Shown: piece after piece, positions 13,686-51,330 of the stretch
Layout of the letters: each line of letters begins with the position of its first letter
Position numbering within the stretch: position 1 is the first letter of the stretch
Source: Bacteroidota bacterium
GTDB lineage: Bacteria > Bacteroidota > Bacteroidia > Bacteroidales > CG2-30-32-10
Reading direction: 5' to 3'
DNA: 64,000 bases
Assembly (NCBI GenBank): GCA_013377115.1
Contig: JACAAW010000001.1
Location: forward strand, 17,063-81,062
The notes under the pieces: generated by a model
Database searches by the model: none
Told to the model about the DNA's origin: nothing
Seen by the model: only the letters and a program-made list of their open reading frames with translations
Position numbers and translations under genes: made by a program

Positions 13686-13713
13686 TTTTTTAGTTTTTGT
13701 TTTTTATTAATAA

Positions 13714-15771: not shown

Positions 15772-16036
15772 ATTAAAATATTTTTGCGATAATGATAAAA
15801 TAAACAATAATTATTTTGCTTTTATTTAAACTGATCCCAAAATGAAATCAATCAGTTAAGAAAGGTAAAGAGGATCAGAAAAATAAAATATTAGAAAAGG
15901 ACAACAGAATAACTGTCGCGGTTTTTGATGTTTTTAAAGAGAATAAGTTTAATAAATAACATCATGAATTTGTTAAATTAGAAAGGTCAAATATAACAAT
16001 TTTTAAAATTCAAAATCAAAAACAATTCCTTGTTTT

Positions 16037-25338: not shown

Positions 25339-26517
25339 ATGGCAACAATTCATTACAATGCCCCTGATTACTTCCTTTTAGACGAGCTTTTTACTGACGA
25401 ACATAAAATGGTTCGAGGTGCAATTAGAGACTGGGTAAATCGCTCAGTAATTCCAATAATTGATGATGCATGCCAAACACATACTTTTCCGAAACATTTG
25501 ATTAGAGAACTTGGAGAAATGGGTGCATTTGGGCCATATATACCACAAAAATATGGTGGCGCAGGATTGGATCATATTGCCTATGGATTAATTATGCAAG
25601 AATTGGAAAGAGGAGATTCGGGAATTCGTTCTATGGCTTCTGTTCAATCTTCTCTGGTAATGTATCCAATTTATAGTTTTGGTACTGAAGAACAAAGAAT
25701 GAAATATCTTCCAAAACTTGCCACTGGCGAATTGGTAGGTTGCTTTGGATTAACAGAGCCTAATCATGGTTCCGATCCAGGAAGTATGGTAACCAGAATT
25801 ACCGACAAAGGAGACCATTTCCTTCTTAATGGTGCAAAAATGTGGATAACAAATTCTCCAATTGCTGACATTGGTGTTGTTTGGGCAAAAGATGATAATG
25901 GAATCGTTCGAGGAGTTATCGTTGAACGTGGAATGAAAGGTTTTACAACTCCAGAAACGACAAAAAAATGGTCCTTAAGAGCTTCTTATACTGGCGAAAT
26001 GGTATTTGACGATGTGATAATCCCAAAAGAGAATTTATTAACTGGCGTTCAAGGATTAAAAGGGCCAATGTCCTGTTTAAATTCAGCTAGATTTGGTATT
26101 GCTTGGGGTGTTATTGGTGCAGCAATGGATTGTTATGATGTTGCCTTAAATTATTCAAAAGAGAGAATTCAATTTAAAAGACCGATTGCTGGATTTCAAT
26201 TAACTCAAAAGAAATTTGCTGAAATTCTTACAGAAATCACTAAAGCACAATTCCTAGCTTGGCGATTGGGTGTTCTTCGTAACGAAAATAGAGCCACTCC
26301 AGCTCAAATTTCAATGGCAAAAAGAAATAATGTAAAAATGGCTTTGGACACTGCACGTGAATCTCGCCAAATACTTGGGGCAATGGGAATCACTGGTGAT
26401 TTTCCAATGATGAGACATATGATGAATTTAGAATCTGTAATCACCTACGAGGGAACTCATGATGTTCATCTTCTAATTACAGGCCTTGATATTACAGGCG
26501 AAAATGCTTTTTCCTAA
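25339..26517 (+). CDS. gcdH: glutaryl-CoA dehydrogenase
   Basis: 392 aa. From recall it aligns with human GCDH over most of its length (CFGLTEPNHGSDPGSM, WITNSPIAD, ARFGIAWGV, ITYEGTHDVHLLI). Confidence 0.9.
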   Translation: MATIHYNAPDYFLLDELFTDEHKMVRGAIRDWVNRSVIPIIDDACQTHTFPKHLIRELGEMGAFGPYIPQKYGGAGLDHIAYGLIMQELERGDSGIRSMASVQSSLVMYPIYSFGTEEQRMKYLPKLATGELVGCFGLTEPNHGSDPGSMVTRITDKGDHFLLNGAKMWITNSPIADIGVVWAKDDNGIVRGVIVERGMKGFTTPETTKKWSLRASYTGEMVFDDVIIPKENLLTGVQGLKGPMSCLNSARFGIAWGVIGAAMDCYDVALNYSKERIQFKRPIAGFQLTQKKFAEILTEITKAQFLAWRLGVLRNENRATPAQISMAKRNNVKMALDTARESRQILGAMGITGDFPMMRHMMNLESVITYEGTHDVHLLITGLDITGENAFS

Positions 26518-26556: not shown

Positions 26557-29352
26557 ATGAAGCAAATTAATTTCAAAGTAAACGGAAAACATTATGGTCT
26601 TTTGGTGAATAGCCATGAAATGTTATCAACTGTAATACGAGAAAAGGTTGGATTAACAGGAACCAAAATAGGCTGTGAACAAGGTAGTTGCGGAGCATGT
26701 ACAGTTTTAGTAAACAACAAACCTGTTTTGAGTTGCATTACACCCGCTTTACGTTGCGAAAATGCCGAAATAATTACAATTGAAGCATTAGCCAAAGATG
26801 GAAAATTACACAAGCTTCAAGAAAAATTTGTTGAAAAAGGTGCCATTCAATGCGGATTTTGTACTCCAGGAATGGTGATGACAGCTCTCAGCCTGGCTCC
26901 AACCTTAAACAAGGATGAAGGTCTTGAATCAATGATGCATCAGATTAAAGATGGTTTATCAGGAAATTTATGCAGATGCACCGGTTATAAAAAAGTTATT
27001 GAAGCAGTTGCCGAATATGCTTTAGAAGATGCAAACATCATTGAAAAGCCTAAGAAACCAATAGAAACGAAAAGTGTAGGAGTTTCTAGACCGTATATCG
27101 AAGCCGAGAAAAAAGTAAAAGGTGCTGCAGATTATGCTGATGACATTGTAATGAAAAATGCTTTGCATTGTAAATTTTTACGCAGCATTTATCCTCATGC
27201 AAAAATCGAAAAAATTGACACCTCCGAAGCTCTCAAATTAGAAGGTGTTCATTATATAGCAATTGGAAAAGAATTGCCAATTACTTTTGGAGTTCTTCCT
27301 ATTTCTGCTGATGAAACAGCTATGGCAGTCGATAAAGTTCGCTATATTGGCGAAATTGTTGCCGCTGTTGCCGCAGATAGCGAGGAAATTGCAGCTGAAG
27401 CATGTAAATTAATCTATGTTCACTATAAGCCAATAAAAGAATTTTTAAAAATCGATGATTCATTAAACGACATTGGTACAAACGAAAAAATTCACGCGGC
27501 TGGAAAATTTAACAATAACATACATAAAAAGGCAGAATTACGTTTTGGAGATCAGCAACAAGGATTAAAAGATGCAGATATTACCACCAAAATGTCATTT
27601 GAATTTTTAGGCATCAATCATGGTTTTACTGAACCTCATGCTGCCACTGCATTTTGGGATGAAAATGGCTTGACAATAACCACTGCAACACAAGTTCCTC
27701 ATTATTTGCATCGCGCATTGGCAAAAGTTTTGGAAGTTCCTTTAAATCGAGTTCGAGTTATCAAACCTTATCTTGGTGGTGGTTTTGGCGGAAAAAGTGA
27801 TCCTTTTCCTCACGAAATGATTGTTTCTCATCTGGCTCGTAAAACTGGGAGACCTGTTCGCGTAAGATTATCTCGCGAAGAAGTTTTTCTTACCAACCAT
27901 GGACGACATCCATCAAAATTGTCGGTAGAAATGGGAATTTCAAAAGATGGATTTTTCAAAGTTCTCGATGCTGATATTGCCATTGATGGCGGAGCTTATG
28001 GAAGTTTTGGTATTGTAACTTCATACTATAACGGAGTTTTATTACAAGCTCCATACAAACTTGATAATTTTGGTTTCAGGACTTATCGAGTTTACACCAA
28101 CAAACCTCAATGTGGTGCAATGCGAGGCCATGGTGCTGTGAATTCCAGATATGCTGTTGAATCACTAATTGATGATTTAGCAAACAAAATAAATGTTGAT
28201 CCTTGCGAATTAAGATTAAAAAACTTCCTTGATTCTAACACCCAAACTGTTGGTCAATATCGAATTACTTCTAATGGAAGTCGAGAATCTTTGCTAAAAG
28301 TTATGGACCAATCAAAATGGAACGAACGCATTGGCAAATTAGAAACTGGTCATGGGCTTGGCGTTGCTTGCGGATTTTTTATTAGTGGAAGCGCTTTGCC
28401 AATTATCTGGAATGAATTACCACAATCAGTTGTTCATTTAAAACTTGATTTCGATGGCAGGGTTTTGATAACTTCTGGTTCCAGCGATATTGGTCAAGGA
28501 AGTGATACTATGCTTGCAATTATTGTTGCAGAAGTTCTTGGAATTTCGATGGACAAAATCTTTGTTTTGGCTGCGGATACATTGCTTACTCCTGTGGATT
28601 TTGGCAGCTATTCGAGTCGAGTTACATTTATGGCAGGTAATGCTGCAAAAGATGCCGCCGAAAACTTGAAAAAAGAAATTTTAGATGCTGTTGTAAAAGC
28701 AAAAGGAATTAATTCGGACGAACTTAATTTTGGAAATAACCGAGTATTTAGCAACGACAAAACTGTTGATTTATCTTGGGATGAAACTATTGAAATTTTA
28801 ACAGCAAAACGAGGAGCTGTTTGTGTAAGCGGAAAATACATTTCTCCAAAATTAGGTGGGGATTTCAAAGGAGCTGGAGCTGGATTAAGTCCTTCTTATA
28901 CATTTGGTGCTTGTGTTGCCGAAGTGAAAGTTGATACAGAGACTGGCCATGTAAAAGTTCTCAATGTTTGGGGAGCTCACGACTGCGGAAAAGCGCTAAA
29001 TCCAATGGCAGTTGAAGGTCAACTAGAAGGTTCGTGGCATATGGGCGCTGGACAAGCAATTAGCGAACAAATGAAATATTATAAAGGACTTTTATTAAAC
29101 AACAATTTCCTTGAATATAAAATCCCAACAACACTTGATACGCCAGATATTCATGCAAACATTATTGAAACAATGGATCCTGAAGGACCTTTTGGAGCAA
29201 AAGAATCTGGTGAAGGTGCAATTCATCCTGTGATTCCTGCAATTGCAAATGCAGTTTTTAAAGCTGTTGGTGTTCGAATTACACAATTACCGATTAGCGC
29301 AGAAGATGTTTTAGCTAAAATGAAAGAGAATCAAATTTCAAAAGAAAATTAA
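26557..29352 (+). CDS. molybdopterin oxidoreductase of the xanthine-dehydrogenase family with fused N-terminal [2Fe-2S] subunit; 4-hydroxybenzoyl-CoA reductase gamma-alpha-like
   Basis: 931 aa. The N-terminal ~160 aa carry two 2Fe-2S motifs (CEQGSCGACTV; CGFCTPG..CRCTGY). These are followed by the aldehyde-oxidase/XDH a/b-hammerhead and MoCo-binding domains. The specific assignment relies on the partner FAD subunit and the gene context. Confidence 0.65.
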   Translation: MKQINFKVNGKHYGLLVNSHEMLSTVIREKVGLTGTKIGCEQGSCGACTVLVNNKPVLSCITPALRCENAEIITIEALAKDGKLHKLQEKFVEKGAIQCGFCTPGMVMTALSLAPTLNKDEGLESMMHQIKDGLSGNLCRCTGYKKVIEAVAEYALEDANIIEKPKKPIETKSVGVSRPYIEAEKKVKGAADYADDIVMKNALHCKFLRSIYPHAKIEKIDTSEALKLEGVHYIAIGKELPITFGVLPISADETAMAVDKVRYIGEIVAAVAADSEEIAAEACKLIYVHYKPIKEFLKIDDSLNDIGTNEKIHAAGKFNNNIHKKAELRFGDQQQGLKDADITTKMSFEFLGINHGFTEPHAATAFWDENGLTITTATQVPHYLHRALAKVLEVPLNRVRVIKPYLGGGFGGKSDPFPHEMIVSHLARKTGRPVRVRLSREEVFLTNHGRHPSKLSVEMGISKDGFFKVLDADIAIDGGAYGSFGIVTSYYNGVLLQAPYKLDNFGFRTYRVYTNKPQCGAMRGHGAVNSRYAVESLIDDLANKINVDPCELRLKNFLDSNTQTVGQYRITSNGSRESLLKVMDQSKWNERIGKLETGHGLGVACGFFISGSALPIIWNELPQSVVHLKLDFDGRVLITSGSSDIGQGSDTMLAIIVAEVLGISMDKIFVLAADTLLTPVDFGSYSSRVTFMAGNAAKDAAENLKKEILDAVVKAKGINSDELNFGNNRVFSNDKTVDLSWDETIEILTAKRGAVCVSGKYISPKLGGDFKGAGAGLSPSYTFGACVAEVKVDTETGHVKVLNVWGAHDCGKALNPMAVEGQLEGSWHMGAGQAISEQMKYYKGLLLNNNFLEYKIPTTLDTPDIHANIIETMDPEGPFGAKESGEGAIHPVIPAIANAVFKAVGVRITQLPISAEDVLAKMKENQISKEN

Positions 29353-29359
29353 GCAAGAA

Positions 29360-30301
29360 ATGATAAAAGAACAATTATATTTCAAAGCTAAATCCATCGA
29401 AGAAGCTATTATTGAAGCAAATAATCATATTGCCAATTTTCGATATATTGCAGGTGGAACAGATGTTCTTGTCAATAAATTTCAAGGAAATGAGAACTCA
29501 AAAATGCTCATTGATCTTTCAGGTATAGATAGTTTAAAGCAAATTACTATTAAGGGAAATCAGGTAGAGATTGGTGCCCTCATTATTTTAGACGAATTAA
29601 AAAATCACAAAATCATTGCTGAAAGTTTTCCTGCATTATTTGAAGCCGCGCATGCTGTTGCCTCACCAATGATTCGTAAAACAGCTACAATCGGTGGAAA
29701 TTTACTATGCGAAAATCGTTGTACTTTTTACAATCAAACAGAATGGTGGAGAAAAGCTGCTGGATATTGTTTAAAATGTGACGGTGATATTTGCATTGCG
29801 ACAGGAGGAAAAAATAACTGCTTATCAAAATTCATTTCCGACACGGCCGTTGTATTGATTAGCATGAATGCAAGTATTGAAATTTTTGACAATAATCAAA
29901 CTTCAATAATTCCTTTAGAAAGTATTTATACTGGAGATGGTGTAAATCCAAGAAATTTAAGTAATTCTGCAATTATCAAATCTATTTTCATTTCGAATGA
30001 TGAAGGATTTACCTCAGTTTATAAAAAGTTGCGACAACGCGAAACCTTAGAATTTGGATCCTTAATTACTGCAGTTACAAAAAGTAAAAATGGAAAAATA
30101 AAGATTGTTTTAGGTGGTGTTGATCCAAAACCTATTGTTGTAGAGGGAATTGCAAATGATGATTTAAACGAACTTATCATAATAGCCAGTAAAAAAGCAC
30201 GAACCGTTGACAATGATATGTATTCCAGGAAATACCGGAAAGAAATGATTTCAGTATATTTGAAGAGAAGTTTTCAGGAATTGGGTTTAATTTTGCCTTA
30301 A
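29360..30301 (+). CDS. hcrB: FAD-binding subunit of the molybdoenzyme, with Cys-rich insertion (4-hydroxybenzoyl-CoA reductase beta-like)
   Basis: 313 aa. FAD_binding_5-type N-terminus (YIAGGTDVLV). An insertion LLCENRCTFYNQTEWWRKAAGYCLKCDGDICIATGGKNNCLS contains six Cys. Confidence 0.6.
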   Translation: MIKEQLYFKAKSIEEAIIEANNHIANFRYIAGGTDVLVNKFQGNENSKMLIDLSGIDSLKQITIKGNQVEIGALIILDELKNHKIIAESFPALFEAAHAVASPMIRKTATIGGNLLCENRCTFYNQTEWWRKAAGYCLKCDGDICIATGGKNNCLSKFISDTAVVLISMNASIEIFDNNQTSIIPLESIYTGDGVNPRNLSNSAIIKSIFISNDEGFTSVYKKLRQRETLEFGSLITAVTKSKNGKIKIVLGGVDPKPIVVEGIANDDLNELIIIASKKARTVDNDMYSRKYRKEMISVYLKRSFQELGLILP

Positions 30302-30329: not shown

Positions 30330-31070
30330 ATGAATTTAAAAGGAAAAACTGCAATTGTAACTGGTGGCAGTCAAGGAATTGGCGCTGCTATCGCATTAAA
30401 ACTTGCTGAACTTGGAGCAAATATCGTCATCATTGATCGCAAAGAAAAAGAAGCTTCAGAAACTACAAAGGAAATTGAAAACCTTGGTGTTAAAAGTTTT
30501 GTTGTTATTGCTGATATTTCAAATTTCCAAGAAGCCGACAATGCCGTGAATTCAATTATTAAGGAATTTGGAAAAATTGATATTTTGGTTAACAATGCTG
30601 GAATCAACATGGACGGTGTTATCTGGAAAATGACCGAAGACCAATGGGACAAAGTTATCAATGTAAATCTAAAAGGTTATTTTAATTATATCAGAGCAAT
30701 TTCGCCAATTTTCAGAGAGCAAAAATCAGGAAAGATTATTAATATTACTTCCATAAACGGACTTAGAGGAAAATTTGGACAATCAAATTATGCTTCTGCA
30801 AAAGCTGGTATTATAGGATTAACAAAAACTGTTGCTAAAGAACTAGGAAAATACAATGTAAATGTAAACGCTGTAGCTCCCGGATTAATTGAAACCGAAA
30901 TGATGAAAAACGCAGATCCTGTGGTTCGCGAAGCAGCAACTGCCGAAATTGTGTTGGGAAGAATGGGCCAATCTGTAGATATTGCAAATACTGTGGCTTT
31001 TCTGGCTTCCGAATTATCGCGCCATATTACAGGCGAAGTGATAAAAGTCGATGGCGGACAATATATTTAG
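30330..31070 (+). CDS. short-chain dehydrogenase/reductase, 3-oxoacyl reductase (FabG-like)
   Basis: 246 aa. TGGSQGIG, NNAG, catalytic YASAKAG. Confidence 0.85.
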   Translation: MNLKGKTAIVTGGSQGIGAAIALKLAELGANIVIIDRKEKEASETTKEIENLGVKSFVVIADISNFQEADNAVNSIIKEFGKIDILVNNAGINMDGVIWKMTEDQWDKVINVNLKGYFNYIRAISPIFREQKSGKIINITSINGLRGKFGQSNYASAKAGIIGLTKTVAKELGKYNVNVNAVAPGLIETEMMKNADPVVREAATAEIVLGRMGQSVDIANTVAFLASELSRHITGEVIKVDGGQYI

Positions 31071-31094: not shown

Positions 31095-32288
31095 ATGAAT
31101 TTAAACGACATTGTAATAGTATCAGCCTGTAGAACTGCCATGGGAAAATTTGGAGGAACTCTTAGAAATATTCCTTCTTACGATTTGGGCGCAGTGGTTA
31201 TTAAAGAAGCATTAAAAAGGGTTTCTATTTCAGGAGATCAAGTTGATGATGTGATTTTAGGAAGCTGCCGTCAGGCCGGAAACGGACCAAATCCTGCAAG
31301 AACTGCTGCTGTTAAAGGTGGAATTGCAATGGAAAAACCTGTTATCACACTGAATATGGCATGTCCTTCAGGAATGAGATCCATTGCAATGGCATCGCAG
31401 GCAATTCGTTTGGGCGAGGCTGAAATTATGGTTGTTGGAGGTTTCGACAGCATGAGTTCAATTCCGTATTTATTGAAAAATGCCCGTTGGGATGGTTTTA
31501 AAATGGGAAACAAATCTCTTGAAGACGGTTGGAGCGATAGTATTGATCCGCTTATCGGACAAGGAATGGGTGAAACTGCAGAAAATTTATTTGATAAATA
31601 TAAAATTTCGAGAGAAGAACAAGATCAATATGCAGTTAATAGTCATTTGAAAGCTGCTGCTGCGCAAAAGAATGGTTGGTTTAATGAAGAAATTGTTCCT
31701 ATTGAAATTCCAGGTGCAAAAAATGCTGCTGCAACAATTTTTGATAAAGACGAAACCATCCGTACCAATGTGAACATGGAAGATCTTGCTAAAATTCGTC
31801 CTGCATTTAGAAAAGAAGGTGGAAGTGTAACTGCAGGAAACTCTTGTGGATTAAGTGATGGCGCAACAGCTTTAGTTGTGATGAGCCGTAAAAAAGCTTC
31901 AGAGTTAAATTTAACTCCACTTTTTTCAATTGTTTCTTATTCGCAAATTGCTGTAAATCCTTCAACAATGGGAGAAGGTCCTTCGGTTGCCATTCCTGAA
32001 GCATTGAAAAAAGCAAATATGACTTTGAATCAATTGGATATTGTTGAAATAAACGAAGCTTTTGCAGTTCAAGTTTTATCAAACCAAAAAGTTCTTAATA
32101 TAGATCCAGAAAAACTAAATGTTAATGGCGGTGCCATCGCATTAGGACATCCTACCGGAATAAGTGGAGCCAGAATATTAGTGACTGGTTATTATGCTCT
32201 AAAAAGACTCAATAAAACATATTGTGTTGCTTCCATTTGTGGTGGCGGTGGAGTAAGTACAGCAATGATAATAAAAAGAGAATCTTAA
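31095..32288 (+). CDS. acetyl-CoA C-acetyltransferase (thiolase II)
   Basis: 397 aa. Nucleophile context NMACPSG, NEAFA, GHPTGISG, CGGGG. Confidence 0.9.
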   Translation: MNLNDIVIVSACRTAMGKFGGTLRNIPSYDLGAVVIKEALKRVSISGDQVDDVILGSCRQAGNGPNPARTAAVKGGIAMEKPVITLNMACPSGMRSIAMASQAIRLGEAEIMVVGGFDSMSSIPYLLKNARWDGFKMGNKSLEDGWSDSIDPLIGQGMGETAENLFDKYKISREEQDQYAVNSHLKAAAAQKNGWFNEEIVPIEIPGAKNAAATIFDKDETIRTNVNMEDLAKIRPAFRKEGGSVTAGNSCGLSDGATALVVMSRKKASELNLTPLFSIVSYSQIAVNPSTMGEGPSVAIPEALKKANMTLNQLDIVEINEAFAVQVLSNQKVLNIDPEKLNVNGGAIALGHPTGISGARILVTGYYALKRLNKTYCVASICGGGGVSTAMIIKRES

Positions 32289-32952: not shown

Positions 32953-35058
32953 TTAAACTTGCCAAGTTTTTGTGTAAGTAGAACCAATAACTCCCTTTTT
33001 GCAAAGTTTTGTCGTCATAAATTCTCCTGAGTGTTTAGCTTGGATTGAAATTGCATCCGATAAAGTTGCATTACAAGAATTTTTAATACAATCTAAAAGT
33101 GCTTTTCTTGCTTGGCTTAGAATTTCATCTTCATTATTTTCTAATCCTGCTATTTCATTTGGAATATCAGAAATTGGATTTTCATTAACTGCTCTTTTTG
33201 CAATTCCATGATCCCCACCTGAAGCAATTTTCAAAGCCATTTTGATTGAGTCTTCAGTAGAACCAGCATAATCAATAAGCCAACCAACAGCATCTTTTGC
33301 TTTTACAGATTTTCCTGATAAAATCAACTTTAGTAAATTTTGATAATTTCCAGCTTGCATTTTTCTAAATGGCCAGTGACAGCCTTCCATTCCTGGTATT
33401 ACTGGCAAAGTAACTTCTGGCATGCCCAAAGCTGCATTTTCTTCTGCAACTAAATAATGACAATGAACCATTAATTCAAGGAATCCACCCAAACAGCGTT
33501 TTCCATTGATAAATCCAACAGAATTTTTAAAGTCGGTATGTAAACGTCGTGCAGTTGCTGACCATGCTTTGCTCAATTCAATTCCCTTATTTGCATCTTC
33601 AATTGCAGGGAAAAAATCTGTTGTATCAGCACCAACCATTTGTGTTGAAATATGGAAATCACCAGTGATAATTACGTTTTCGATTCCAGCTGATTTCAAA
33701 TAATCAATGGCTCTGTTTAATTCAGCATTTACATCATGATTATAGCTTTCGCGATTAATAGAAATTACACCAACTTTTCCGTCATGCTCGGCATTTACAT
33801 AAAGTTGTTGCCATTCTGGACTACCAATTTTATCAAATTCTTTTGGATACCAAGCATTTTTAGCCGCTTCTGGCTGAAGTTTATGATAATCGCTTACAAT
33901 TTTGCGAGCGGCATCAGCACCATAATGTCGAATAAGTGCAAGTACGCCTTTTCTAAATTGAGCACATAATTCACCAATTAAATTCATTTGTGAAAGATGC
34001 GAGCGATTTTCATGAAGCATCAAGCTGGTCATTTGGAACAATGGACCGAGAATCCATGCATCAAATTCTGCAGTTTCTTCTTCGTTCATCGACCAGTCAA
34101 CCATTGGTCTGAAATGATCAAGTGGATACCAGTTTGAACCGCTTTCTTTCTTTTCGTTCATGTTGTCACTTGGTGTAAAAAGTTCGCCATAATGTTGACC
34201 TAAATGATGCAAACACGACCAAGTTAGGAAGTTTGCTCCAGCAGCACCAATTGCATCATGCGCTCTGAAAGGATTTGGACCAAAATATTTACGAATATAT
34301 TTATCTATTTTCCAATAAGGCATATTGGTAGTTTCGTTGAATCTAGCAGCTGCACCTGTGAGTCCGCAGAAGAAAACATCAAGAACAAAGGCCCAATTAT
34401 CGCTAACTTGCATTGGAATTAATCCCAAAGCCCATAATAGTTTTGAACTTGAAGAAGGCGTTGATTCAACAATTTCCCAAATTTTATTTACTTCGTGAGG
34501 AAAAGCGGGGTGTGCAATTCCAACTCCTAGTTGTGAACTTGGAAATCCAGAAGTAACAGACCAAATATCGATATCAGGAAAACTTTCTCTGAATGCTTTA
34601 TAATGATCCTTTTTTATTTCGAGAATTTCGGGAATTGCTTCAAGTAAAAATTTAGGATTGTGAGAAGCCAAAGCTTTTGGTAATGTTTTTCCGTCGTATG
34701 AATATTTAATAATATTTCCCATTACTTTATTGGCATTTCCTTTTCCGAATGCTTTAACAAGTCCGGGATATTGTTTTGCAATACCATCTGGTACACCTGG
34801 AAAATCCAGTGCAATAATTGGAATATCGAAAGGTTCCAGTCTTGAACCCAACTGCATTGTTTTTCCTGCGCCAACAATTCCATTGGCTCCTGTAATTACA
34901 AGAGCTCCTCTATTACCTGCTTTTCCAAAAACTTGGTCAACAAGTTCACCTGCTGTAACAGGTAATTTTCCATTTTGAAATATTTCTATAATTGAACCTA
35001 ACCCCAGCGTCTGAAGTGTAGATGATCTCATTTGATTTATCATATATTTTTCCTCCAT
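32953..35058 (-). CDS. fused 3-hydroxyacyl-CoA dehydrogenase (N-terminal) / enoyl-CoA hydratase-fold (C-terminal) protein
   Basis: 701 aa. N-terminal Rossmann-like ITGANGIVGAGKT followed by a HAD-type helical domain. The C-terminal ~260 aa have a crotonase fold (GVISINRESYNHDV.., GKRCLGGFLELMVHCHY). Domain order is the reverse of FadB. Confidence 0.6.
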   Translation of the reverse strand: MEEKYMINQMRSSTLQTLGLGSIIEIFQNGKLPVTAGELVDQVFGKAGNRGALVITGANGIVGAGKTMQLGSRLEPFDIPIIALDFPGVPDGIAKQYPGLVKAFGKGNANKVMGNIIKYSYDGKTLPKALASHNPKFLLEAIPEILEIKKDHYKAFRESFPDIDIWSVTSGFPSSQLGVGIAHPAFPHEVNKIWEIVESTPSSSSKLLWALGLIPMQVSDNWAFVLDVFFCGLTGAAARFNETTNMPYWKIDKYIRKYFGPNPFRAHDAIGAAGANFLTWSCLHHLGQHYGELFTPSDNMNEKKESGSNWYPLDHFRPMVDWSMNEEETAEFDAWILGPLFQMTSLMLHENRSHLSQMNLIGELCAQFRKGVLALIRHYGADAARKIVSDYHKLQPEAAKNAWYPKEFDKIGSPEWQQLYVNAEHDGKVGVISINRESYNHDVNAELNRAIDYLKSAGIENVIITGDFHISTQMVGADTTDFFPAIEDANKGIELSKAWSATARRLHTDFKNSVGFINGKRCLGGFLELMVHCHYLVAEENAALGMPEVTLPVIPGMEGCHWPFRKMQAGNYQNLLKLILSGKSVKAKDAVGWLIDYAGSTEDSIKMALKIASGGDHGIAKRAVNENPISDIPNEIAGLENNEDEILSQARKALLDCIKNSCNATLSDAISIQAKHSGEFMTTKLCKKGVIGSTYTKTWQV

Positions 35059-36295: not shown

Positions 36296-37042
36296 TTATT
36301 TCGTATTTAACAAAACACAACCATATGCCGCCAAAAACTGTGACTTTTCAGGACTTTCTGTGTTTTTAAACTTATCTTTAAACAATTTCAATATCATTGG
36401 ATGGTTATCAGGAATTCCACCAGTTACGACCAAAAAGTCTTCAACCAATGCCAATTCGAAACTTCTTTCAATGATTGAATTATAAATTCCCAAAACGATA
36501 CTTGGCATATTGGATCCATTTTTTATCATCCCAATAATTTCCGAAACAGCGAAAACAGTGCAAAAACTATTAATTCGAATTTCTTCAGTTGCTTTCTCGG
36601 CAAATTCATTGAATTCTAATGCTGAAATATCTAAGCGAAAAGCTATTTCTTCCAAAAATGAACCAGTACCAGCAGCACATTTTCGATTCATTTTAAATTT
36701 ATCAACTTGACCTTCTGCGTTAATTTTCACAAACTTTGTATCCTGACCGCCAATATCAATTACGGAACATGGCTTTTTGTAAATATCAAAAACAGCTTTG
36801 GACAATGCAATTATCTCAGAATTGGAAACCAAAGGAACCGTAAGCTTTTCGCGGCCATAGCCACAGGTAAAAATTGGATATTCGATTTCATGCTGGGCAG
36901 AAAAATGGTCAATTACTTTTTTTGAAGCTTTATCAAAGTCAAAACCAGTGCGGCCAACAAAATAATCGACAATAGCGTTATCTTCGTTAACGAGAACACC
37001 TTTGGTAAATGAAGATCCTAAATCAATTCCTATTCGGTACAT
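36296..37042 (-). CDS. BcrAD/BadFG/HgdC-family ATPase (electron-transfer activator)
   Basis: 248 aa. Actin-fold phosphate-1 motif IGIDLGSSFTKG, IDIGGQDTK, and cluster-bridging Cys contexts NRKCAAGTGSFLE and NSFCTVFAVSE. Confidence 0.85.
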   Translation of the reverse strand: MYRIGIDLGSSFTKGVLVNEDNAIVDYFVGRTGFDFDKASKKVIDHFSAQHEIEYPIFTCGYGREKLTVPLVSNSEIIALSKAVFDIYKKPCSVIDIGGQDTKFVKINAEGQVDKFKMNRKCAAGTGSFLEEIAFRLDISALEFNEFAEKATEEIRINSFCTVFAVSEIIGMIKNGSNMPSIVLGIYNSIIERSFELALVEDFLVVTGGIPDNHPMILKLFKDKFKNTESPEKSQFLAAYGCVLLNTK

Positions 37043-37092
37043 TATATATTTTTTACATTTAGATTTAAAAATAATGTAAATCTAAGAGAAAA

Positions 37093-38328
37093 TTATTTTC
37101 TATTTGCCAATTGTTGAATAAACGTTTCTATTGAAATAATGCTTTGCTCTTCGCTGTAGCACCTTGAATCATTCAAATCGCCATGAATTTCAATAAAAGG
37201 AACCTTGGTTTTTTCTAATAATCTATTTTGCAAACCGTATCTGTTGTTCGAGTTACGTGGACAAGTTTTGGATTCATGATAAATAATTCCGTCAATCGAA
37301 AATTCTGATAGAAGATTTGTCAAAACTTTTTCCTTTTCCTCGTCGGCTCTTACAATAAATAATTTGCAATAGGCCAATGCCGAAGATTCAAAAGGATCTG
37401 CTGGGTCTAAGGCATCAAAAATCCAGCTATTGCAATAGGTTGAAGCGACAATACAAGTGTCGAGACTTGCAAACATCTTAGCATTGCTGCTTAATTTGTA
37501 CCACAATGGCATTCCGTCCCAGTAAAGTCTTAGTTTTTCGTTTGGAACTGCACTAATTCCGTTCCTCACTCTTTCTTGAAGTTCTGCAAGTAAAATTTTA
37601 TAATAATCAACAGCATGCTGAGTTCCACGCATCACAACGATTGGTCCCATGTGAATCGCTGAATCAAAAAAGTTGATTGGTGATGGCTTATTTTTCGCTG
37701 TTTCTAAAACTTGACGCCAAAGCACGCAACCATCATGAGATAATTTTATCGTTTCTCTGAATTTGTCAATGTCGAATTTTTGCGTTGCAACCTTTTCCAA
37801 TTCAGGAATAATTTCTTTGAATTGTTCTGCAACAGATTTTATGATGCTTGGCGTGAGCTCGTTTATACAAAGTGGTGTATTGATCTCTAAAATAGGAACT
37901 TTAAAATACCTGGCGTAATATGAAAACCAATCTCCAACCTCGCGGCATTGATTGGTATTATAAACCAAAATATCTGGTGTTGGCACCGATTTGAATCCAC
38001 TTTTTTGAAGCGGTGTTTCGTTTTGCAAAAATGCACCAATATCGCTTGTTAAATACGAACAAATATCTGGTGAAAAACCATGAGCAACAGCTGTAGGAAT
38101 ATATTTATCAGCAGTTTTTGAAGCTCCCAACATGGCACCATGATTTTCAGGAAAATAAACTTCAAATCCCATGGAATAAAGCAATTCTGCCGGACCAACA
38201 CTTGTGCACCAGACAATTTTTTTATTCTTGGTTTCGTCAGCGGTTTTTAGTCGGTTAAAATAATCATCCATAGTAACACGGAGATTACCAACAGATTGAA
38301 GTTTTACTATTTCAGGTTTTTCTTGCAT
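37093..38328 (-). CDS. single-subunit member of the benzoyl-CoA reductase / 2-hydroxyacyl-CoA dehydratase family (double-cubane-cluster-protein-like)
   Basis: 411 aa. Family N-terminal signature IVWCTSVGPAELLYSMGFEVYFPENHGA and multiple conserved-looking Cys. Only one such subunit lies next to one activator gene. Confidence 0.7.
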   Translation of the reverse strand: MQEKPEIVKLQSVGNLRVTMDDYFNRLKTADETKNKKIVWCTSVGPAELLYSMGFEVYFPENHGAMLGASKTADKYIPTAVAHGFSPDICSYLTSDIGAFLQNETPLQKSGFKSVPTPDILVYNTNQCREVGDWFSYYARYFKVPILEINTPLCINELTPSIIKSVAEQFKEIIPELEKVATQKFDIDKFRETIKLSHDGCVLWRQVLETAKNKPSPINFFDSAIHMGPIVVMRGTQHAVDYYKILLAELQERVRNGISAVPNEKLRLYWDGMPLWYKLSSNAKMFASLDTCIVASTYCNSWIFDALDPADPFESSALAYCKLFIVRADEEKEKVLTNLLSEFSIDGIIYHESKTCPRNSNNRYGLQNRLLEKTKVPFIEIHGDLNDSRCYSEEQSIISIETFIQQLANRK

Positions 38329-39110: not shown

Positions 39111-39140
39111 AAAATGTTTGTTGTTCTTTGTTTTATGTTT
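39111..39140. repeat. left inverted repeat flanking the four-helix-bundle gene
   Basis: aaaatgtttgttgttctttgttttatgttt. Its reverse complement matches 39599-39634 (a 15-nt exact block aacataaaacaaaga plus a 7-nt block caaacat). Confidence 0.75.
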
Positions 39141-46272: not shown

Positions 46273-46544
46273 TAATTTGTTTTTTCTGGAACTCAAAAAT
46301 ACTTAAAAGTGCGTACTTTAAAAAATGATTTTGAAAATTTGGAGGGTTGAGTTATCAACAATTATTTATTACAGTAGACAATTTACAACAAATATTCTAA
46401 GGAAAATCTATCAGGAAATACAAAAATTATTCCGCAATCACCCAATCACCATTTTTGATGAGAATATTGTTAGGATTGAAATCCCAGTTCATGTTACTTA
46501 ATAATTAAGAAAATTCTAAATAATTACAATTTCAATAATTGGTA

Positions 46545-47369
46545 TTATTTTTTATTCAATTTATGGTATCTAAATCCACCAAATATTGCAGCTCCAATTG
46601 CTCCAGAATAAATTGCATCGGGATGTGTCGAAAAAGTTAAACCTAATTTTGCTTCTGTTCCAAGTTCTTCAATTGCCTGAACCATACCTTTATTCATTGC
46701 CATTCCACCCATTAATGCAACTTTTGAATCGGCTTTTAATGAAGAAAGCAATTTTATTACTTTACTTGCTATGGATAAATGAATTCCTTTAATAATATCT
46801 GGAGTTGAAATCCCTCTAGAAACCATGTTAATCACATCCGTTTCTGCAAGTACTGAGCAAATACCTGAAGGCAATTCAGGTGACATTGATTTTAGTGATG
46901 CATCGCCAACTTCTTCTATTGCTAATCCTAAATATCTTGAAATGTTTTCAACAAATTGTCCCGAACCAGAAGCACATTGGCCTGTCATTTTATAATCCAA
47001 TACTCGGCCTTCATCACTAATGTTTATTGCTCTTACGAAAAGAGCTCCAAGATCCAAAACTGTTTTTGAACCAGGATTAAGAAATAGCCCACCTTTTGCA
47101 TGAGTAGTCATGCTATAAAAATGACCTTTCTTTCTTTTTAGAAGTTCTCCTTCTCCAGTTGAAGCCACATAAGCAATATCCTCGTATTTCAAATTGTTTT
47201 TTAAAAGTATTGCATCTAATAAAAGATCCGAAATACTTTCGGGATTCCTTTTTCTTATTTTCTCGTTTACCTTGTCAATAATAATTGGATTATCAGAATA
47301 CTCCATTAAAACCAGTTTAATTGTACTGCTTCCAACGTCAATTCCGAGGGTATAAACTTTATTATCCAT
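46545..47369 (-). CDS. bcrD: benzoyl-CoA reductase ATPase subunit, small (BcrD/BadG-like)
   Basis: 274 aa. LGIDVGSSTIK, cluster Cys contexts TGQCASGSGQF and SGICSVLAETD. Fourth gene of a C-B-A-D series. Confidence 0.75.
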   Translation of the reverse strand: MDNKVYTLGIDVGSSTIKLVLMEYSDNPIIIDKVNEKIRKRNPESISDLLLDAILLKNNLKYEDIAYVASTGEGELLKRKKGHFYSMTTHAKGGLFLNPGSKTVLDLGALFVRAINISDEGRVLDYKMTGQCASGSGQFVENISRYLGLAIEEVGDASLKSMSPELPSGICSVLAETDVINMVSRGISTPDIIKGIHLSIASKVIKLLSSLKADSKVALMGGMAMNKGMVQAIEELGTEAKLGLTFSTHPDAIYSGAIGAAIFGGFRYHKLNKK

Positions 47370-47401
47370 ATAGACTTATTTCTTTATTTAATTTTTACTG
47401 A

Positions 47402-48784
47402 TTATTCAACATGACTTCTTCTAGCAAACATTGCTCCGCCCAGAGCTCCCATAAATATTGAGTCAGGATGAATATTAATAATAATATCATCACCATAATT
47501 TTTATGTACCAACTCAGAAACGTATTTCAATACTGCTTGGTTACGAGCAACACCACCTGTAAATGTAAATTCATTTCTAACACCACCTGAACGAGCTAAT
47601 AAAGACATCGCTCTCATCACAATTGCGCGATGTAAACCGGCTAAAATATCAGAACGTTTTTGACCTACATTTAAAAGCTCACGAATTTCTGCAGCAGCAA
47701 AAACAGTACACGTTGAACAAATATTAACTTCACTTTTTGCCTCCAAAGCTAATGGTCCAAGTTCATTTAATGAAATACTAAACTCATCAGCAATGTAACC
47801 AAGATATCTTCCACATCCAGCAGCACATCTATCATTCATATGGAAACTAGTTACCAAACCATGACTATCAACCTGAATCGCTTTTGTATCCTGCCCACCA
47901 ATGTCTAAAACTGTTTTTGTATTAGGGAAAACAGCATGAGCTCCAAAAGCATGGCATAAAATCTCAGATTTGATACATTTCTCTGGGAATGGCAATAATG
48001 CTCTTCCATATCCTGTTCCTACCATATTGGCTATGTGAATATCCATATTGGCAACAAACATGATGTGTTCCTTTATTGAATCATGAACATTTTTAAAGTT
48101 GCCCTTCAATAAATTCATTTCAGTATCAAATTCTATACTTTGGTTTTCAGCAATAGTCTCTTCAAGATTCTGATATTTATCGTGAAGAATTTCTAATGCC
48201 TGAAACACCAACTCTTTGAAATTAAACTCCGTGAGCTCATTTTCTACGGATGTGATACTTTTATCATAAACCAGCATCAAAGGTTCAAATAGTGCTTTAT
48301 CTAATTTCCCAATTTCTTTGTTAAAATGCTCACTTACAATATCACGAAAAAATTGATTTTTAGAACCTAAATTTCCATACAAAAAATCATCATGAATAAT
48401 TGGTCCAATAGTTTTTACAATATTCTCAACATGCTTTGCAACAATATCTCTCAATTCGTTTTCGAAGGTAGTTGCAATGGTATCTTTGAATTGAACATTT
48501 AGGCGATCCAATCGTTTTTTAAACTGTAAATATTGAAATACGGATTCAACATCCTCGATATATTTTTTATATTCTGGTTTGCTCTGAATCTCATCTTCCA
48601 ATTTTAATTTGAGCAAAGAAAATCTAGCATTATAAATGGCCTCAAGTCTGGCAATTTCAGTTGCCACCGTATAATTTGCCCTTGTATTTGTAATTCCTCT
48701 TCCAATTATCTCATCTTTTTCATTAACAATTACTGCTTTAGATGTTGTTGAGCCGAGGTCTATTCCTAAAAAGTATTTCTTCAT
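47402..48784 (-). CDS. bcrA: benzoyl-CoA reductase ATPase subunit, large (BcrA/BadF-like)
   Basis: 460 aa. LGIDLGSTTSKA, then a ~200-aa insertion, then DIGGQDTKA, NDRCAAGCGRYL and CSTCTVFAAAE. The insertion-bearing large ATPase is characteristic of class I BCR alpha subunits. Confidence 0.75.
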   Translation of the reverse strand: MKKYFLGIDLGSTTSKAVIVNEKDEIIGRGITNTRANYTVATEIARLEAIYNARFSLLKLKLEDEIQSKPEYKKYIEDVESVFQYLQFKKRLDRLNVQFKDTIATTFENELRDIVAKHVENIVKTIGPIIHDDFLYGNLGSKNQFFRDIVSEHFNKEIGKLDKALFEPLMLVYDKSITSVENELTEFNFKELVFQALEILHDKYQNLEETIAENQSIEFDTEMNLLKGNFKNVHDSIKEHIMFVANMDIHIANMVGTGYGRALLPFPEKCIKSEILCHAFGAHAVFPNTKTVLDIGGQDTKAIQVDSHGLVTSFHMNDRCAAGCGRYLGYIADEFSISLNELGPLALEAKSEVNICSTCTVFAAAEIRELLNVGQKRSDILAGLHRAIVMRAMSLLARSGGVRNEFTFTGGVARNQAVLKYVSELVHKNYGDDIIINIHPDSIFMGALGGAMFARRSHVE

Positions 48785-48817
48785 TGATATCTGTTATTTC
48801 TAAATTTTGTAAAATTT

Positions 48818-50089
48818 TTAATACATCTTTCTTTGATCTAACATTTGGAAAAAAGACTCAAGTCTGTTTTTAATGTTGGAATAAGAAAAATATCTCGGAT
48901 CTACTAAATCAGATTCAATAAATCCGACAGGAATTTCCAGTTGTCGTTCTAATTGTTGCATAATCATTAATTGTCCGGCAGAAAAAGAATTACAACTTTT
49001 TATTGAATTCACTAAAAATCCATCGGCTTTATAATCTGTAATACATTTTGACAAAAGCTCCACTCTTTGTTCTAAATTTAGGTTGGTATAGCAATTCATA
49101 CAATATTCTGCAAGGCTTTCGAGTGGTTTCTCAGGATTAACTCTAAATCCCATATCATAAACACCGCCAACTTTGGTATAGGAAGAAGCAACGATGACGG
49201 CTCCCATATCATAGAATAATTTCCAAAATTCTCTGAAATGAGTCCAATTTGGAGGACCTTCAACTACCAATCTAAATCGTTCTTTTTCCATTACACCTTC
49301 AGGGGTGATTGGGCCCAAACCAAGATTAACTCTTTCTAAAATTTCATTATAAAGTTCATGATAATAATTTACTGCTTCATCAGAACCACGAAAACCATTA
49401 TTAATTGGCCCGATATAGTAAACGCCAGCAAAATAGGCATCAATAGGAGATGGAACATTTTTGGTGGTATCAAAAATCTTCATAATATAATCTTCCACCT
49501 TGCTAGAATTTCGTAAGCAGGCCTTTAATTTTTCTTCATCATATTTATTTCCAGAAACTTTTTCCATTTTAGGAATAACCTCTTCCTTCAATTGCTTCAC
49601 CATATAAGCAGTCATTTCTGGAGTAACTTTATGATTTTCTTGATAAGGTGTGTGCAATAAGGCAACAGGAACATCTGGATAAAGACGTTTTAATGTTTCG
49701 AACCATTTCATGAAAGTGAAACAGCCAGTATAACTTAAAAGAAAAAGATCGGGTTCAGGAATTTTTTCACCATTTGGACCAATGTTTCCATTAATCATCA
49801 TTCCAACATCACATTTAACATAGGTACAAACATCTTCAGAATGCCCTATTTTTTCTGCATCCCTAATAAAATCGGCAGATTTTTTTCTCATTCCAGATTG
49901 CAATGCATTTATTTCTGGATAAACAGGCAACATGCCGAATGACAATATTAATTCTGAAATATTCCCCGGAACAAAAGTATAAACAACTTTTTTTCCAGTT
50001 TCTTTTGCAGTACTCAAATCCTTAAAAAGACGAGAAATCATCTCTTTTTGAATAATCATACTTTTTTCTTTTGCAATATCTTTTGACAT
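48818..50089 (-). CDS. bcrB: benzoyl-CoA reductase core subunit (BcrB/BadE-like; 2-hydroxyacyl-CoA dehydratase fold)
   Basis: 423 aa. Family signature VVYTFVPGNISELILSFGMLPVYPE. Its size fits the ~48-kDa BCR beta subunit. Confidence 0.7.
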   Translation of the reverse strand: MSKDIAKEKSMIIQKEMISRLFKDLSTAKETGKKVVYTFVPGNISELILSFGMLPVYPEINALQSGMRKKSADFIRDAEKIGHSEDVCTYVKCDVGMMINGNIGPNGEKIPEPDLFLLSYTGCFTFMKWFETLKRLYPDVPVALLHTPYQENHKVTPEMTAYMVKQLKEEVIPKMEKVSGNKYDEEKLKACLRNSSKVEDYIMKIFDTTKNVPSPIDAYFAGVYYIGPINNGFRGSDEAVNYYHELYNEILERVNLGLGPITPEGVMEKERFRLVVEGPPNWTHFREFWKLFYDMGAVIVASSYTKVGGVYDMGFRVNPEKPLESLAEYCMNCYTNLNLEQRVELLSKCITDYKADGFLVNSIKSCNSFSAGQLMIMQQLERQLEIPVGFIESDLVDPRYFSYSNIKNRLESFFQMLDQRKMY

Positions 50090-50166
50090 ATTTTAAGTAA
50101 AATTAATAGTTAAAAAAACGAGTATTTTTGCAGTATAAATTCAAATATGAAATCTACTAAAATACA

Positions 50167-51330
50167 CTAATCCCAAAGTTTAATAGAATCTGAAAAAGTT
50201 CCAACCTGTTCTTTAATAACTTTAAACTGTCCTGTATTTTCACTATACAAGAAGCTTATGTAACGCATATTGTTTTCAATGCAGGCTTGTTGAAGAATTG
50301 GATGGTCTAATAATGCTGGGTCACAAAAACTAGGAGCAGCAAAAATAATTCCATCAACTTTTCTTTCGCTGGCAAGTTTTAATAATCGAGCTTCTTTCGG
50401 ATTATCAACGTCGTAAACTGATGAAGAGAAGGTGCTATTATTTAAATATGAGTGACTTAATGCTCTAAAAGGATCATTGCTGTCAGTTGGAATATCTCCT
50501 TGAATCCATCTGGTTCCTAAAAGGAAATCATCTTCAACAATATAACAACCTGCCAATTCAATAGCTCTAATTAATCCAACTGGAGGTTGCTCACAAAATG
50601 CTCCAATTACTAAAACTCTGATTTTATCTAGTGGCTCTCCACTTTCTTGATTAAGCAAACTAATTACTTTTTCAAGAATTTCATTATGCTCTTCAACTGG
50701 AATTACCAATCCTGCCCTTACAATATGGTAAACATCAGCAGCTGTTATTTTCCAAGGAGCAGCATCGCGAATGGAATAAATCTCTTCAGTTAATTTTCTA
50801 TTTTTATTGAACAAAGAAATAGAGTGATTAAGGCGTTCAGGTGTAATTTCAACATTGTTGATTTTTTTTACTTCTGCCAATACGTGTTCCATTTCTTGAA
50901 TATAGAAGGTTCCCCCAATATGAGATTTGAAATTTTGCGGATAATCCAGATATTTTACAAACTTACCTTTGTTTAAGAGTTTAAACATTCCAGATAAATT
51001 TCTGATAACATCACAAATAGAAGGAAAAATAAATCCATCAAAACCCTCAAAATGATTATCAAGAGCAAGCTCAATGATACCTCTGGGCATATGGCAAATA
51101 TAGGATTGATAATAAGCATCACCCTTTACTATTAGTTTTTTATCTCCACCACCCATTATACCAATGGCTAAACCATTTGCAGCATGTATAATTTCTCTAG
51201 GAAAATAAATTGGCATATAACCTACCAGAACCCTTGACTGATCCTGCGATTTCCACTCTTTTGCTCTAGTAAAATTTAAATCAAAGGAAAGATCTTCACA
51301 TTTACTAATAATTTCATTTAAAGATTCCAA
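50167..51330 (-). CDS. bcrC: benzoyl-CoA reductase core subunit (BcrC/BadD-like)
   Basis: 387 aa. VGYMPIYFPREIIHAANG signature. The ORF begins with TTG at 51330, and the next Met lies inside the conserved region, so a TTG start is likely. Confidence 0.7.
   Translation of the reverse strand: MESLNEIISKCEDLSFDLNFTRAKEWKSQDQSRVLVGYMPIYFPREIIHAANGLAIGIMGGGDKKLIVKGDAYYQSYICHMPRGIIELALDNHFEGFDGFIFPSICDVIRNLSGMFKLLNKGKFVKYLDYPQNFKSHIGGTFYIQEMEHVLAEVKKINNVEITPERLNHSISLFNKNRKLTEEIYSIRDAAPWKITAADVYHIVRAGLVIPVEEHNEILEKVISLLNQESGEPLDKIRVLVIGAFCEQPPVGLIRAIELAGCYIVEDDFLLGTRWIQGDIPTDSNDPFRALSHSYLNNSTFSSSVYDVDNPKEARLLKLASERKVDGIIFAAPSFCDPALLDHPILQQACIENNMRYISFLYSENTGQFKVIKEQVGTFSDSIKLWD

Follow-up and report, generated by a model that had tools for sequence, protein, structure and literature searches.

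The window analysed here is a 64-kb stretch of a Bacteroidota metagenome-assembled genome (MAG) with a GC content of approximately 33%, and its positions 26557 to 30301 carry two adjacent forward-strand genes that probably encode a cytoplasmic two-polypeptide enzyme of the HcrCAB/HbaBCD branch of the xanthine oxidase family, which would strip 4-hydroxybenzoyl-CoA of its hydroxyl group in the oxygen-free degradation of phenolic compounds. The most fitting description of the pair is a Bacteroidota-type variant of 4-HBCR (4-hydroxybenzoyl-CoA reductase) within a complete class I benzoyl-CoA pathway cluster. Its domain content, ligand motifs, phylogenetic placement and conserved neighbourhood were established directly from the data. 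Reductive dehydroxylation of 4-hydroxybenzoyl-CoA had been proposed for this stretch before (the original prediction), and the proposal is supported by the phylogenetic tree, signature residues, loop alignment and gene context, with 4-hydroxybenzoyl-CoA as the presumed substrate. The two open reading frames (ORFs) are separated by 7 bp, no anomaly in base composition was found over them, and their parts are as follows (lengths in amino acids, aa; FAD, flavin adenine dinucleotide; MoCo, molybdenum cofactor; NJ, neighbour-joining).

26557..29352, forward strand: fused gamma-alpha subunit, 931 aa, GenBank NVO01104.1 (ORF; Pfam; best NCBIfam model HcrA TIGR03194; best PDB match 1rm6_A)
26557..27015, forward strand: HcrC-like domain, aa 1-153 (Fer2 + Fer2_2; aligns with 1rm6_C residues 6-149)
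27016..27072, forward strand: fusion linker, approximately aa 154-172 (between the end of the HcrC match at aa 153 and the start of the HcrA match at aa 165)
27073..29352, forward strand: HcrA-like MoCo domain, aa 173-931, including Glu886, Tyr491, His525, Arg511, Arg531 and Glu883 (alignments to 1rm6_A, QorL and CoxL; NJ tree)
29360..30301, forward strand: HcrB-like FAD-binding beta subunit, 313 aa, GenBank NVO01105.1 (FAD_binding_5; TIGR03195; 1rm6_B)
29708..29821, forward strand: Cys-rich insertion, aa 117-154, predicted [4Fe-4S] loop (ungapped alignment to HcrB; conservation in 78 orthologues)

Pfam searches of the 931-aa protein returned Fer2/Fer2_2 at aa 7-151 and Ald_Xan_dh_C with MoCoBD_1/2 at aa 189-863, the MoCo-binding domains (Ald_Xan_dh_C, MoCoBD_1, MoCoBD_2) being matched over their full length, and the 313-aa protein was matched by FAD_binding_5. 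Coordinates, lengths and Pfam domains agree with the earlier description of a two-[2Fe-2S] small subunit fused to a MoCo large subunit. The eight Cys residues of the two [2Fe-2S] clusters (Cys40/45/48/60 and Cys99/102/139/141) are all invariant in 120/120 homologues, as is the catalytic Glu886, which corresponds to Thauera Glu726 and to the GE-motif Glu of QorL and CoxL. The GenBank names of both proteins are only generic because the NCBIfam equivalog cut-offs were not reached; relatives have already been labelled as 4-hydroxybenzoyl-CoA reductase subunits by JGI and, for the beta subunit of one relative, by NCBI.

The solved chains of the Thauera aromatica enzyme comprise 769 aa (1rm6_A), 324 aa (1rm6_B) and 161 aa (1rm6_C), and the sum of the HcrC and HcrA sizes given in the original prediction (approximately 161 + 769 aa) is confirmed by these chains (930 aa versus 931 aa here). 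Gamma and alpha form one ORF in the window, in place of the three-gene, three-subunit layout of 4-HBCR, and the fusion is a difference of architecture in which every cofactor module is kept. In the orthologue conservation profile, no conserved residues were found at approximately aa 157-173 and the length between fixed points varied from 30 to 45 residues, a variability as expected of what appears to be a simple linker. For comparison with relatives, a scan of species-representative genomes was performed, in which 154 loci encoded a relative and the best 80 were kept, all from Bacteroidota MAGs, mostly of freshwater or groundwater origin. That the fusion is an artefact of sequencing, assembly or gene calling, or a decaying pseudogene, is extremely improbable: only the MAG origin of the window speaks for it, whereas a single ORF of 909-946 aa was present in the best 120 clusters at 90% identity (the Fer2_2 + MoCo domain set being shared by nearly all of them) and likewise in all 80 species-level loci, the cofactor ligands are invariant, and an identical ORF was found in an independent Logan assembly.

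The fusion had been called a variant architecture, which holds with respect to canonical HcrA, since none of Thauera HcrA's 120 closest relatives, of approximately 770 aa each, is fused. It is not a rare form, being counted in at least 154 species, lineage-wide in Bacteroidota and recurring in other Hcr-like lineages (tree representatives P0122, P0125, P0126). As the nearest sister lineages are unfused, fusion or fission has happened more than once. Throughout the xanthine oxidase family, FeS-MoCo fusions of approximately 900-950 aa are frequent. The classic case is Desulfovibrio gigas MOP (1VLB/1SIJ), a single chain of approximately 907 aa that shares the fusion with the 931-aa protein and shows this architecture to be an old, common theme in the family; MOP differs in lacking an FAD subunit and the [4Fe-4S] loop, in being oxidative, and in matching only aa 6-706 (322 bits). 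Searches of the literature for an hcrC-hcrA fusion, or for 4-HBCR or benzoyl-CoA reductase (BCR) in Bacteroidota, returned nothing specific.

In the loop of the 313-aa protein, Cys residues are located at positions 117, 121, 137, 140, 145 and 154, exactly as counted in the original prediction. When the FAD subunit was searched with phmmer against solved structures, 1rm6_B was the best match (131 bits versus 74 bits for the next), and in this alignment Cys121, Cys137, Cys145 and Cys154 fall on HcrB Cys122, Cys138, Cys146 and Cys155 with no gaps across the loop, which shares the motif RC(T)FYNQ(S/T)EWWR...GYCLK...GD.C....C with HcrB. The predicted residue correspondence was thereby reproduced, and the four Cys were additionally found to be invariant in 78/78 orthologous FAD subunits of the Bacteroidota loci. 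In a comparison with the FAD partners of more remote Hcr-like enzymes and with the [4Fe-4S]-containing aldehyde oxidase 5y6q_B, these four were also the only Cys columns in common. Among NCBIfam models, TIGR03195 was best for the FAD subunit (207.6 bits). The AlphaFold2 model of the subunit reached a predicted template modelling score (pTM) of 0.83, and Foldseek ranked 1rm6_B first, so that the insertion is homologous to the HcrB FeS loop by sequence, with 1rm6_B best in both sequence and fold. The HcrB residues Cys122/138/146/155 are those which we take to be the [4Fe-4S] ligands in 1RM6, the structure of Unciuleac et al. 2004, and Cys121/137/145/154 are therefore proposed as [4Fe-4S] ligands of the window protein on the basis of these HcrB ligands and of the conservation pattern. 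HcrB has been described to carry an extra loop that binds a 4Fe-4S cluster (PMC11760930).

Two further Cys of the loop, Cys117 (29708-29710) and Cys140 (29777-29779), are nearly invariant in the clade (76/78 and 75/78, respectively). Their counterparts in Thauera HcrB are Gln118 and Tyr141, and Cys is also missing at these positions in the other loop-bearing subunits that were compared. An obligate disulfide pair between Cys117 and Cys140 was considered and is not indicated, because their rare losses are uncorrelated among orthologues.

Of the NCBIfam models, HcrA TIGR03194 scored best on the MoCo part (816.1 bits), followed by XdhA (547 bits) and PaoC (279 bits), and the best PDB match of the 931-aa protein was 1rm6_A with 589 bits, the next being D. 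gigas MOP (1sij_A, 322 bits) and QorL (234 bits). For the gamma part, the HcrC model TIGR03193 was not the top model, with the generic small-subunit models NF041020 and NF043084 scoring slightly higher. Homologues for a phylogeny were searched in 1.8 billion representative proteins, and an NJ tree, i.e., a distance method, was calculated from 146 MoCo domains (703 columns, 100 bootstraps) with Thauera HcrA as its single characterised anchor; a search with Thauera HcrA for the named anchors Rhodopseudomonas palustris HbaC and Geobacter PcmR yielded best 120 relatives that were all at least 74% identical to it. The fused Bacteroidota clade was recovered with a bootstrap of 100. Going outward, support was 89 with the unfused P0123/P0124 added, 99 with P0128, 90 for a 17-member group, 91 with Thauera HcrA and its representative P0134 (19 members), and 92 with three further representatives (22 members), and it collapsed outside the 22-member group. 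By this placement the MoCo domain groups with Thauera HcrA (91-92), apart from the other family representatives sampled; a grouping with purine or aldehyde hydroxylases, which would have spoken against the original prediction, was not found. Each FAD partner that was checked in the 19-member group (P0122, P0123, P0128) has the loop, and in the next-outer lineage (P0126) the partner FAD subunit is 292 aa long and loop-less.

Signature columns were defined as those conserved to at least 85% in the loop-bearing group including Thauera and to at most 15% outside. There were 17 such columns, and the window residue equals the Thauera residue at 16/17, the seventeenth being a Ser in the group consensus versus a Thr in Thauera. 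Examples in Thauera numbering are Tyr326, His360 (RGHG motif), Arg346, Arg366 and Glu723, and some of the signature residues are located in Mo-site motifs. Five were checked in window numbering, i.e., Tyr491, Arg511, His525 (RGHG motif), Arg531 and Glu883, and each was invariant in 120/120 close homologues.

The locus of P0126 (L088, 9126-12856) was inspected as an outer Hcr-like member. It encodes a fused 951-aa chain, the loop-less FAD subunit is located upstream of it, and the neighbours are TetR, mocA, xdhC, thiolase, crotonase and HGD-D/activase genes. The loop-less partner may represent a state before acquisition of the loop or after its loss.

The gene context in the window comprises the following genes of the class I benzoyl-CoA pathway and of beta-oxidation (SDR, short-chain dehydrogenase/reductase).

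25339..26517, forward strand: gcdH, decarboxylating-type glutaryl-CoA dehydrogenase (432 bits to solved GcdH structures versus 247 bits for other acyl-CoA dehydrogenases)
30330-31070, forward strand: FabG-like SDR, downstream of hcrB and kept there in the closest relatives
31095-32288, forward strand: thiolase, downstream of the SDR and kept there in the closest relatives
38331-39104, reverse strand: dch (best match TIGR03189)
39640-40722, reverse strand: oah (equivalog model above cut-off)
40749-41810, reverse strand: had (equivalog model above cut-off)
46545..51330, reverse strand: bcrD, bcrA, bcrB, bcrC, Thauera-type class I (TIGR02260 and TIGR02263 above cut-offs; TIGR02259 and TIGR02261 best matches)

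The genes gcdH-hcrCA-hcrB-SDR-thiolase form an apparent operon with gcdH as its first gene, and the same gcdH-first order was found in eleven related loci (L012, L013, L015-L017, L021-L024, L039, L060). SDR and thiolase are probably lower-pathway beta-oxidation genes, and dch/oah/had encode the modified beta-oxidation of the dearomatised ring, with the oah and had models (TIGR03200, TIGR03201) as well as the bcrB and bcrC models above their cut-offs. The original prediction had placed both gcdH and the bcr genes next to the pair. The former is directly adjacent; the latter are not, as bcrDABC lie 16-21 kb downstream on the opposite strand, and dch/oah/had start 8 kb away. An electron-transfer flavoprotein and another acyl-CoA dehydrogenase are encoded upstream of the pair.

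For the relatives, neighbourhoods were counted by tblastn with the pathway proteins of the window within 10 kb of the pair, and 35/80 loci have full flanks at this distance. Genes of bcrABCD, dch/had/oah or gcdH were found in 42/80 loci (23/35 with full flanks), mocA and/or xdhC, which serve maturation of the molybdopterin cytosine dinucleotide cofactor, in 42/80 (26/35), typically directly upstream of the pair, and pyruvate:ferredoxin oxidoreductase (PFOR) in 15/80 (11/35). Flanks of 10 kb undercount the association, because in the window itself a distance of over 16 kb separates the bcr genes from the pair. Relatives typically show the order mocA-xdhC-SDR-hcrCA-hcrB(-hemerythrin)(-PFOR), which in most cases diverges from bcrCBAD or adjoins dch-oah-had. 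Two lineages outside the phylum were also inspected. The unfused sister P0124 lies within an operon of the order bcrC-bcrB-bcrA-(bcrD fused to AMP-ligase)-panE-SDR-thiolase-hcrC-hcrA-hcrB-HGD-D-activase, and the fused P0122 has as its neighbours bcr-like genes, a gene for a had-like dehydrogenase and one for a 2-oxoacid:ferredoxin oxidoreductase. The first related locus (L002; P0068, 77% identity) has the order MFS, CRP, mocA, xdhC, hcrCA, hcrB, hemerythrin, PFOR with no bcr gene within 10 kb, and the suspicion raised by it, namely that the clade is unrelated to benzoyl-CoA metabolism, was overturned by the survey of the 80 loci. PFOR or 2-oxoglutarate:ferredoxin oxidoreductase (KGOR) beside the genes in relatives fits a ferredoxin-dependent reductase.

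In many relatives (L002-L004, L007, L030, L032, L043, L082, L084), a hemerythrin gene is located directly downstream of hcrB, often followed by a PFOR of 1175 aa, with mocA and xdhC directly upstream. The hemerythrin may serve oxygen sensing or scavenging for an oxygen-sensitive module.

A number of observations weigh against the assignment as 4-HBCR. All three NCBIfam equivalog cut-offs were missed (TIGR03194, 816.1 versus 994.55 bits; TIGR03195, 207.6 versus 404.55 bits; TIGR03193, 151.6 versus 257.8 bits), and BLASTP identity to Thauera HcrA was 41%, with many other family representatives reaching 36-39%. Because of these two results, we infer the substrate instead of reading it from the match. 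Thauera HcrA is not the nearest branch in the tree, the 17-member subgroup containing no biochemically characterised enzyme. The loop was modelled by AlphaFold2 with low confidence, the predicted local distance difference test (pLDDT) being below 50 at residues 119-157, a result hardly unexpected where the chain is predicted to wrap about a metal cluster, and the same four Cys columns occur in the oxidative PaoB (5g5g_B) and Methylobacillus aldehyde oxidase (5y6q_B). In the window, no AMP-forming benzoate or 4-hydroxybenzoate-CoA ligase was found, a scan for the 2x[4Fe-4S] ferredoxin motif returned only QueG and no ferredoxin gene, and tblastn found no homologues of xdhC and mocA; PFOR and hemerythrin were likewise not found in the window by tblastn. 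Among the relatives, approximately one third of the full-flank loci have no benzoyl-CoA pathway gene within 10 kb, and some of them, e.g., L002 and L030, sit among MFS transporters, CRP, hemerythrin and PFOR instead.

The shared Cys columns bring up an oxidative enzyme, either a molybdenum hydroxylase or an aldehyde oxidoreductase of the PaoABC or xanthine dehydrogenase kind, in which electrons would leave via the [4Fe-4S] loop to an acceptor instead of entering there. PaoB and 5y6q_B are the second and third sequence matches of the FAD subunit and the second and eighth by fold, fused FeS-MoCo chains are typical of aldehyde oxidoreductases, e.g., D. gigas MOP with its 322 bits, and one relative bears the source name ‘aldehyde oxidase’. 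Escherichia coli PaoABC and the Methylobacillus enzyme (5G5G, 5Y6Q) indeed have a homologous four-Cys [4Fe-4S] insertion in the FAD subunit and the same overall subunit logic; they differ in being oxidative and in the length and sequence of the loop, and PaoABC is periplasmic with a twin-arginine translocation (Tat) leader. Such a leader of the PaoA kind is not apparent in the window protein, which begins straight with the Fer2 domain, as judged by the alignment start, residue 4 of the query aligning at PaoA residue 63. In addition, the MoCo domain matches HcrA with 589 bits versus 187 bits for PaoC (5g5h_C) and 184 bits for 5y6q_C, the PaoC model stays far behind the HcrA model (cut-off of PaoC, 1180 bits), the tree sets the domain apart from the other representatives sampled (bootstrap 91-92), and the neighbours are anaerobic benzoyl-CoA pathway genes and not those of purine or aldehyde metabolism. 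An oxidative enzyme is hence considered very unlikely. The loop had also been credited in the original prediction with making the enzyme run reductively, and this part has to be given up: the loop is present in the oxidative PaoABC-type aldehyde oxidoreductase (PMC13404670) and therefore does not set the reaction direction alone, and the reductive urolithin dehydroxylase Ucd is without it (PMC11760930).

Closer to the preferred assignment is an enzyme of the same chemistry with another or broader substrate, i.e., a ferredoxin-driven Hcr-clade dehydroxylase acting on a different para-hydroxylated aryl-CoA (protocatechuyl-, vanilloyl- or methyl-substituted 4-hydroxybenzoyl-CoA) or, where bcr genes are not neighbouring, perhaps on a non-CoA phenolic. 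The identity of 41% and the missed cut-offs, the subclade without a characterised enzyme, the loci of the L002/L030 type with no bcr gene within 10 kb and the two extra clade-specific loop Cys all speak for it, as does the existence of a second reductive dehydroxylase in the family, Ucd, that acts on a non-CoA substrate (PMC12771579, PMC11760930). Ucd, however, lacks the loop and is only approximately 33% identical to 4-HBCR (PMC12771579), and the window protein has retained the 17 residues that mark the clade with Thauera, those located in Mo-site motifs among them. Furthermore, the recurrent tight linkage to bcr, dch/had/oah and gcdH in two thirds of the well-sampled loci and in sister lineages would not be explained by a product that is neither benzoyl-CoA nor a BCR substrate. 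With these points taken together, we regard a different substrate as unlikely, and a shifted substrate range is conceivable because the subclade lacks a characterised enzyme and approximately one third of the loci lack a pathway gene within 10 kb. More speculatively, the Bacteroidota (gamma-alpha)+beta enzymes could constitute a distinct functional subfamily, namely reductive aryl dehydroxylases that are coupled to ferredoxin/PFOR and whose substrates extend further than 4-hydroxybenzoyl-CoA. Here, the additional conserved Cys117 and Cys140 might adjust or shield the FeS loop, and the conserved downstream hemerythrin might protect from oxygen; this idea is rather doubtful at present.

Under the preferred assignment as 4-HBCR, reaction direction and electron donor, like the substrate, are inferred, and the electron path proposed here rests on homology to the solved Thauera enzyme. 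A low-potential ferredoxin, presumably re-reduced by the PFOR or KGOR that often neighbours the genes in relatives, would supply electrons to the [4Fe-4S] cluster, for which Cys121/137/145/154 in the 313-aa FAD subunit are the proposed ligands. FAD and the two [2Fe-2S] clusters at the N-terminal end of the 931-aa protein would then relay these electrons to the Mo-pyranopterin centre. At this centre, the para-hydroxyl of 4-hydroxybenzoyl-CoA would leave as water to yield benzoyl-CoA, which would then be dearomatised by class I BcrABCD and processed further by Dch/Had/Oah, beta-oxidation enzymes and GcdH, all of which are encoded in the window.

Compared with known systems, the pair is closest in its predicted cofactors to Thauera aromatica HcrCAB (PDB 1RM6/1SB3; EC 1.1.7.1, formerly 1.3.7.9), i.e., Mo-pyranopterin, two [2Fe-2S] clusters, FAD and a [4Fe-4S] insertion of approximately 40 residues, and it shares with this enzyme the catalytic Glu, the 17 signature residues, the four aligned loop Cys and the linkage of its genes to class I BCR and the lower benzoyl-CoA pathway. 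It differs in having two genes and not three, in the order CA-B, in the extra Cys117 and Cys140 of the loop, and in its host, which is a low-GC Bacteroidota MAG and not a denitrifying proteobacterium. The nearest tree branches (bootstrap 89-99) are the uncultured Hcr-like lineages P0123, P0124, P0128 and P0122, all uncharacterised; the P0124 locus mirrors the gene set of the window and P0122 likewise has a gamma-alpha fusion, whereas P0123, P0124 and P0128 (48-52% identity) have separate gamma and alpha genes. Enterocloster Ucd (UcdCFO/Ucdh), compared by its published description, is the only other reductive phenol dehydroxylase known in the family and likewise removes an OH para to an electron-withdrawing carbonyl. 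It is described as having no [4Fe-4S] loop, NADH-linked input, three separate subunits, approximately 33% identity to 4-HBCR and a non-CoA substrate (PMC11760930, PMC12771579), and the window pair, which carries the loop, is not of the Ucd type, loop-less according to PMC11760930.

Several further observations were made on the genes surrounding the pathway. A Bro-N gene separates bcrD from the gene of an ADP-forming (NDP-forming) acyl-CoA synthetase (42842-44929, reverse strand) located 1.6 kb downstream, and such a synthetase adjoins bcrD in several relatives (L023, L040, L077, L081). In the sister lineage L091, a fusion of BcrD and an AMP-ligase (3929-6565, 878 aa) takes the place of the ADP-forming synthetase. 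An ADP-forming aryl-CoA synthetase is a possible activator of the substrate. At 12309-15807 (reverse strand), a second ADP-forming acyl-CoA synthetase (697 aa) adjoins the tryptophanase gene tnaA. The Beta_elim_lyase gene at 12309-13685 was considered as a tyrosine phenol-lyase supplying phenolics, which was rejected since it is a tryptophanase (NF053783, 890 bits, above cut-off).

A second, minimal BCR/dehydratase-like set is located at 36296-38328 and 41831-42799 (both reverse strand) and consists of an HGD-D protein of 411 aa, a BcrAD-type activase of 248 aa and a PanE/ApbA-like reductase; its best models, HadB (221 bits) and BcrB (159 bits), remained far below their cut-offs. This module recurs beside had-oah-dch in many Bacteroidota loci (e.g., L032, L034, L062, L067, L074, L088, L091). 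In L091, the unfused sister lineage, it comes after hcrB, and in L088 it takes the form of an ApbA-HGD-D fusion.

The aromatic cluster is interrupted by small inserted genes, all on the reverse strand, i.e., a gene for a 23S rRNA intervening-sequence protein between dch and oah (39139-39549), the Bro-N domain protein gene between the acyl-CoA synthetase and bcrD (45445-46296), and a REP-associated tyrosine transposase gene downstream of the bcr genes (53344-53919). Additionally, an ORF of 701 aa (32953-35058, reverse strand) is flanked by the hcr operon on one side and by a divergent thiolase-like gene on the other. It has a weak crotonase match at aa 420-610, and its N-terminal approximately 400 residues had no Pfam or NCBIfam match at an E-value of 1e-5 or below.

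For enzymology, the pair adds little, as its cofactors follow the same logic as in the solved Thauera enzyme, FeS-MoCo fusions are frequent in the family, and annotation pipelines already name relatives as 4-HBCR subunits. A variant of 4-HBCR is plausible to a specialist rather than surprising, and the ecological implication is more interesting. The two-polypeptide form could, moreover, simplify the production of this oxygen-sensitive enzyme in a heterologous host. No literature was found on an ATP-dependent anaerobic aromatic pathway being widespread in uncultured freshwater Bacteroidota, and we know of no cultured anaerobic aromatic degrader in this phylum. If the assignment is true, many uncultured Bacteroidota of freshwater and groundwater encode the complete anaerobic route of the Thauera type. 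Since Bacteroidota are normally regarded as polysaccharide degraders, more organisms than before would then be expected to take part in mineralising phenolic and lignin-derived compounds where waters are anoxic. If the more doubtful distinct subfamily were real, facultatively anaerobic freshwater Bacteroidota would be significant consumers of lignin- and humic-derived phenolics via the ATP-dependent class I BCR pathway.

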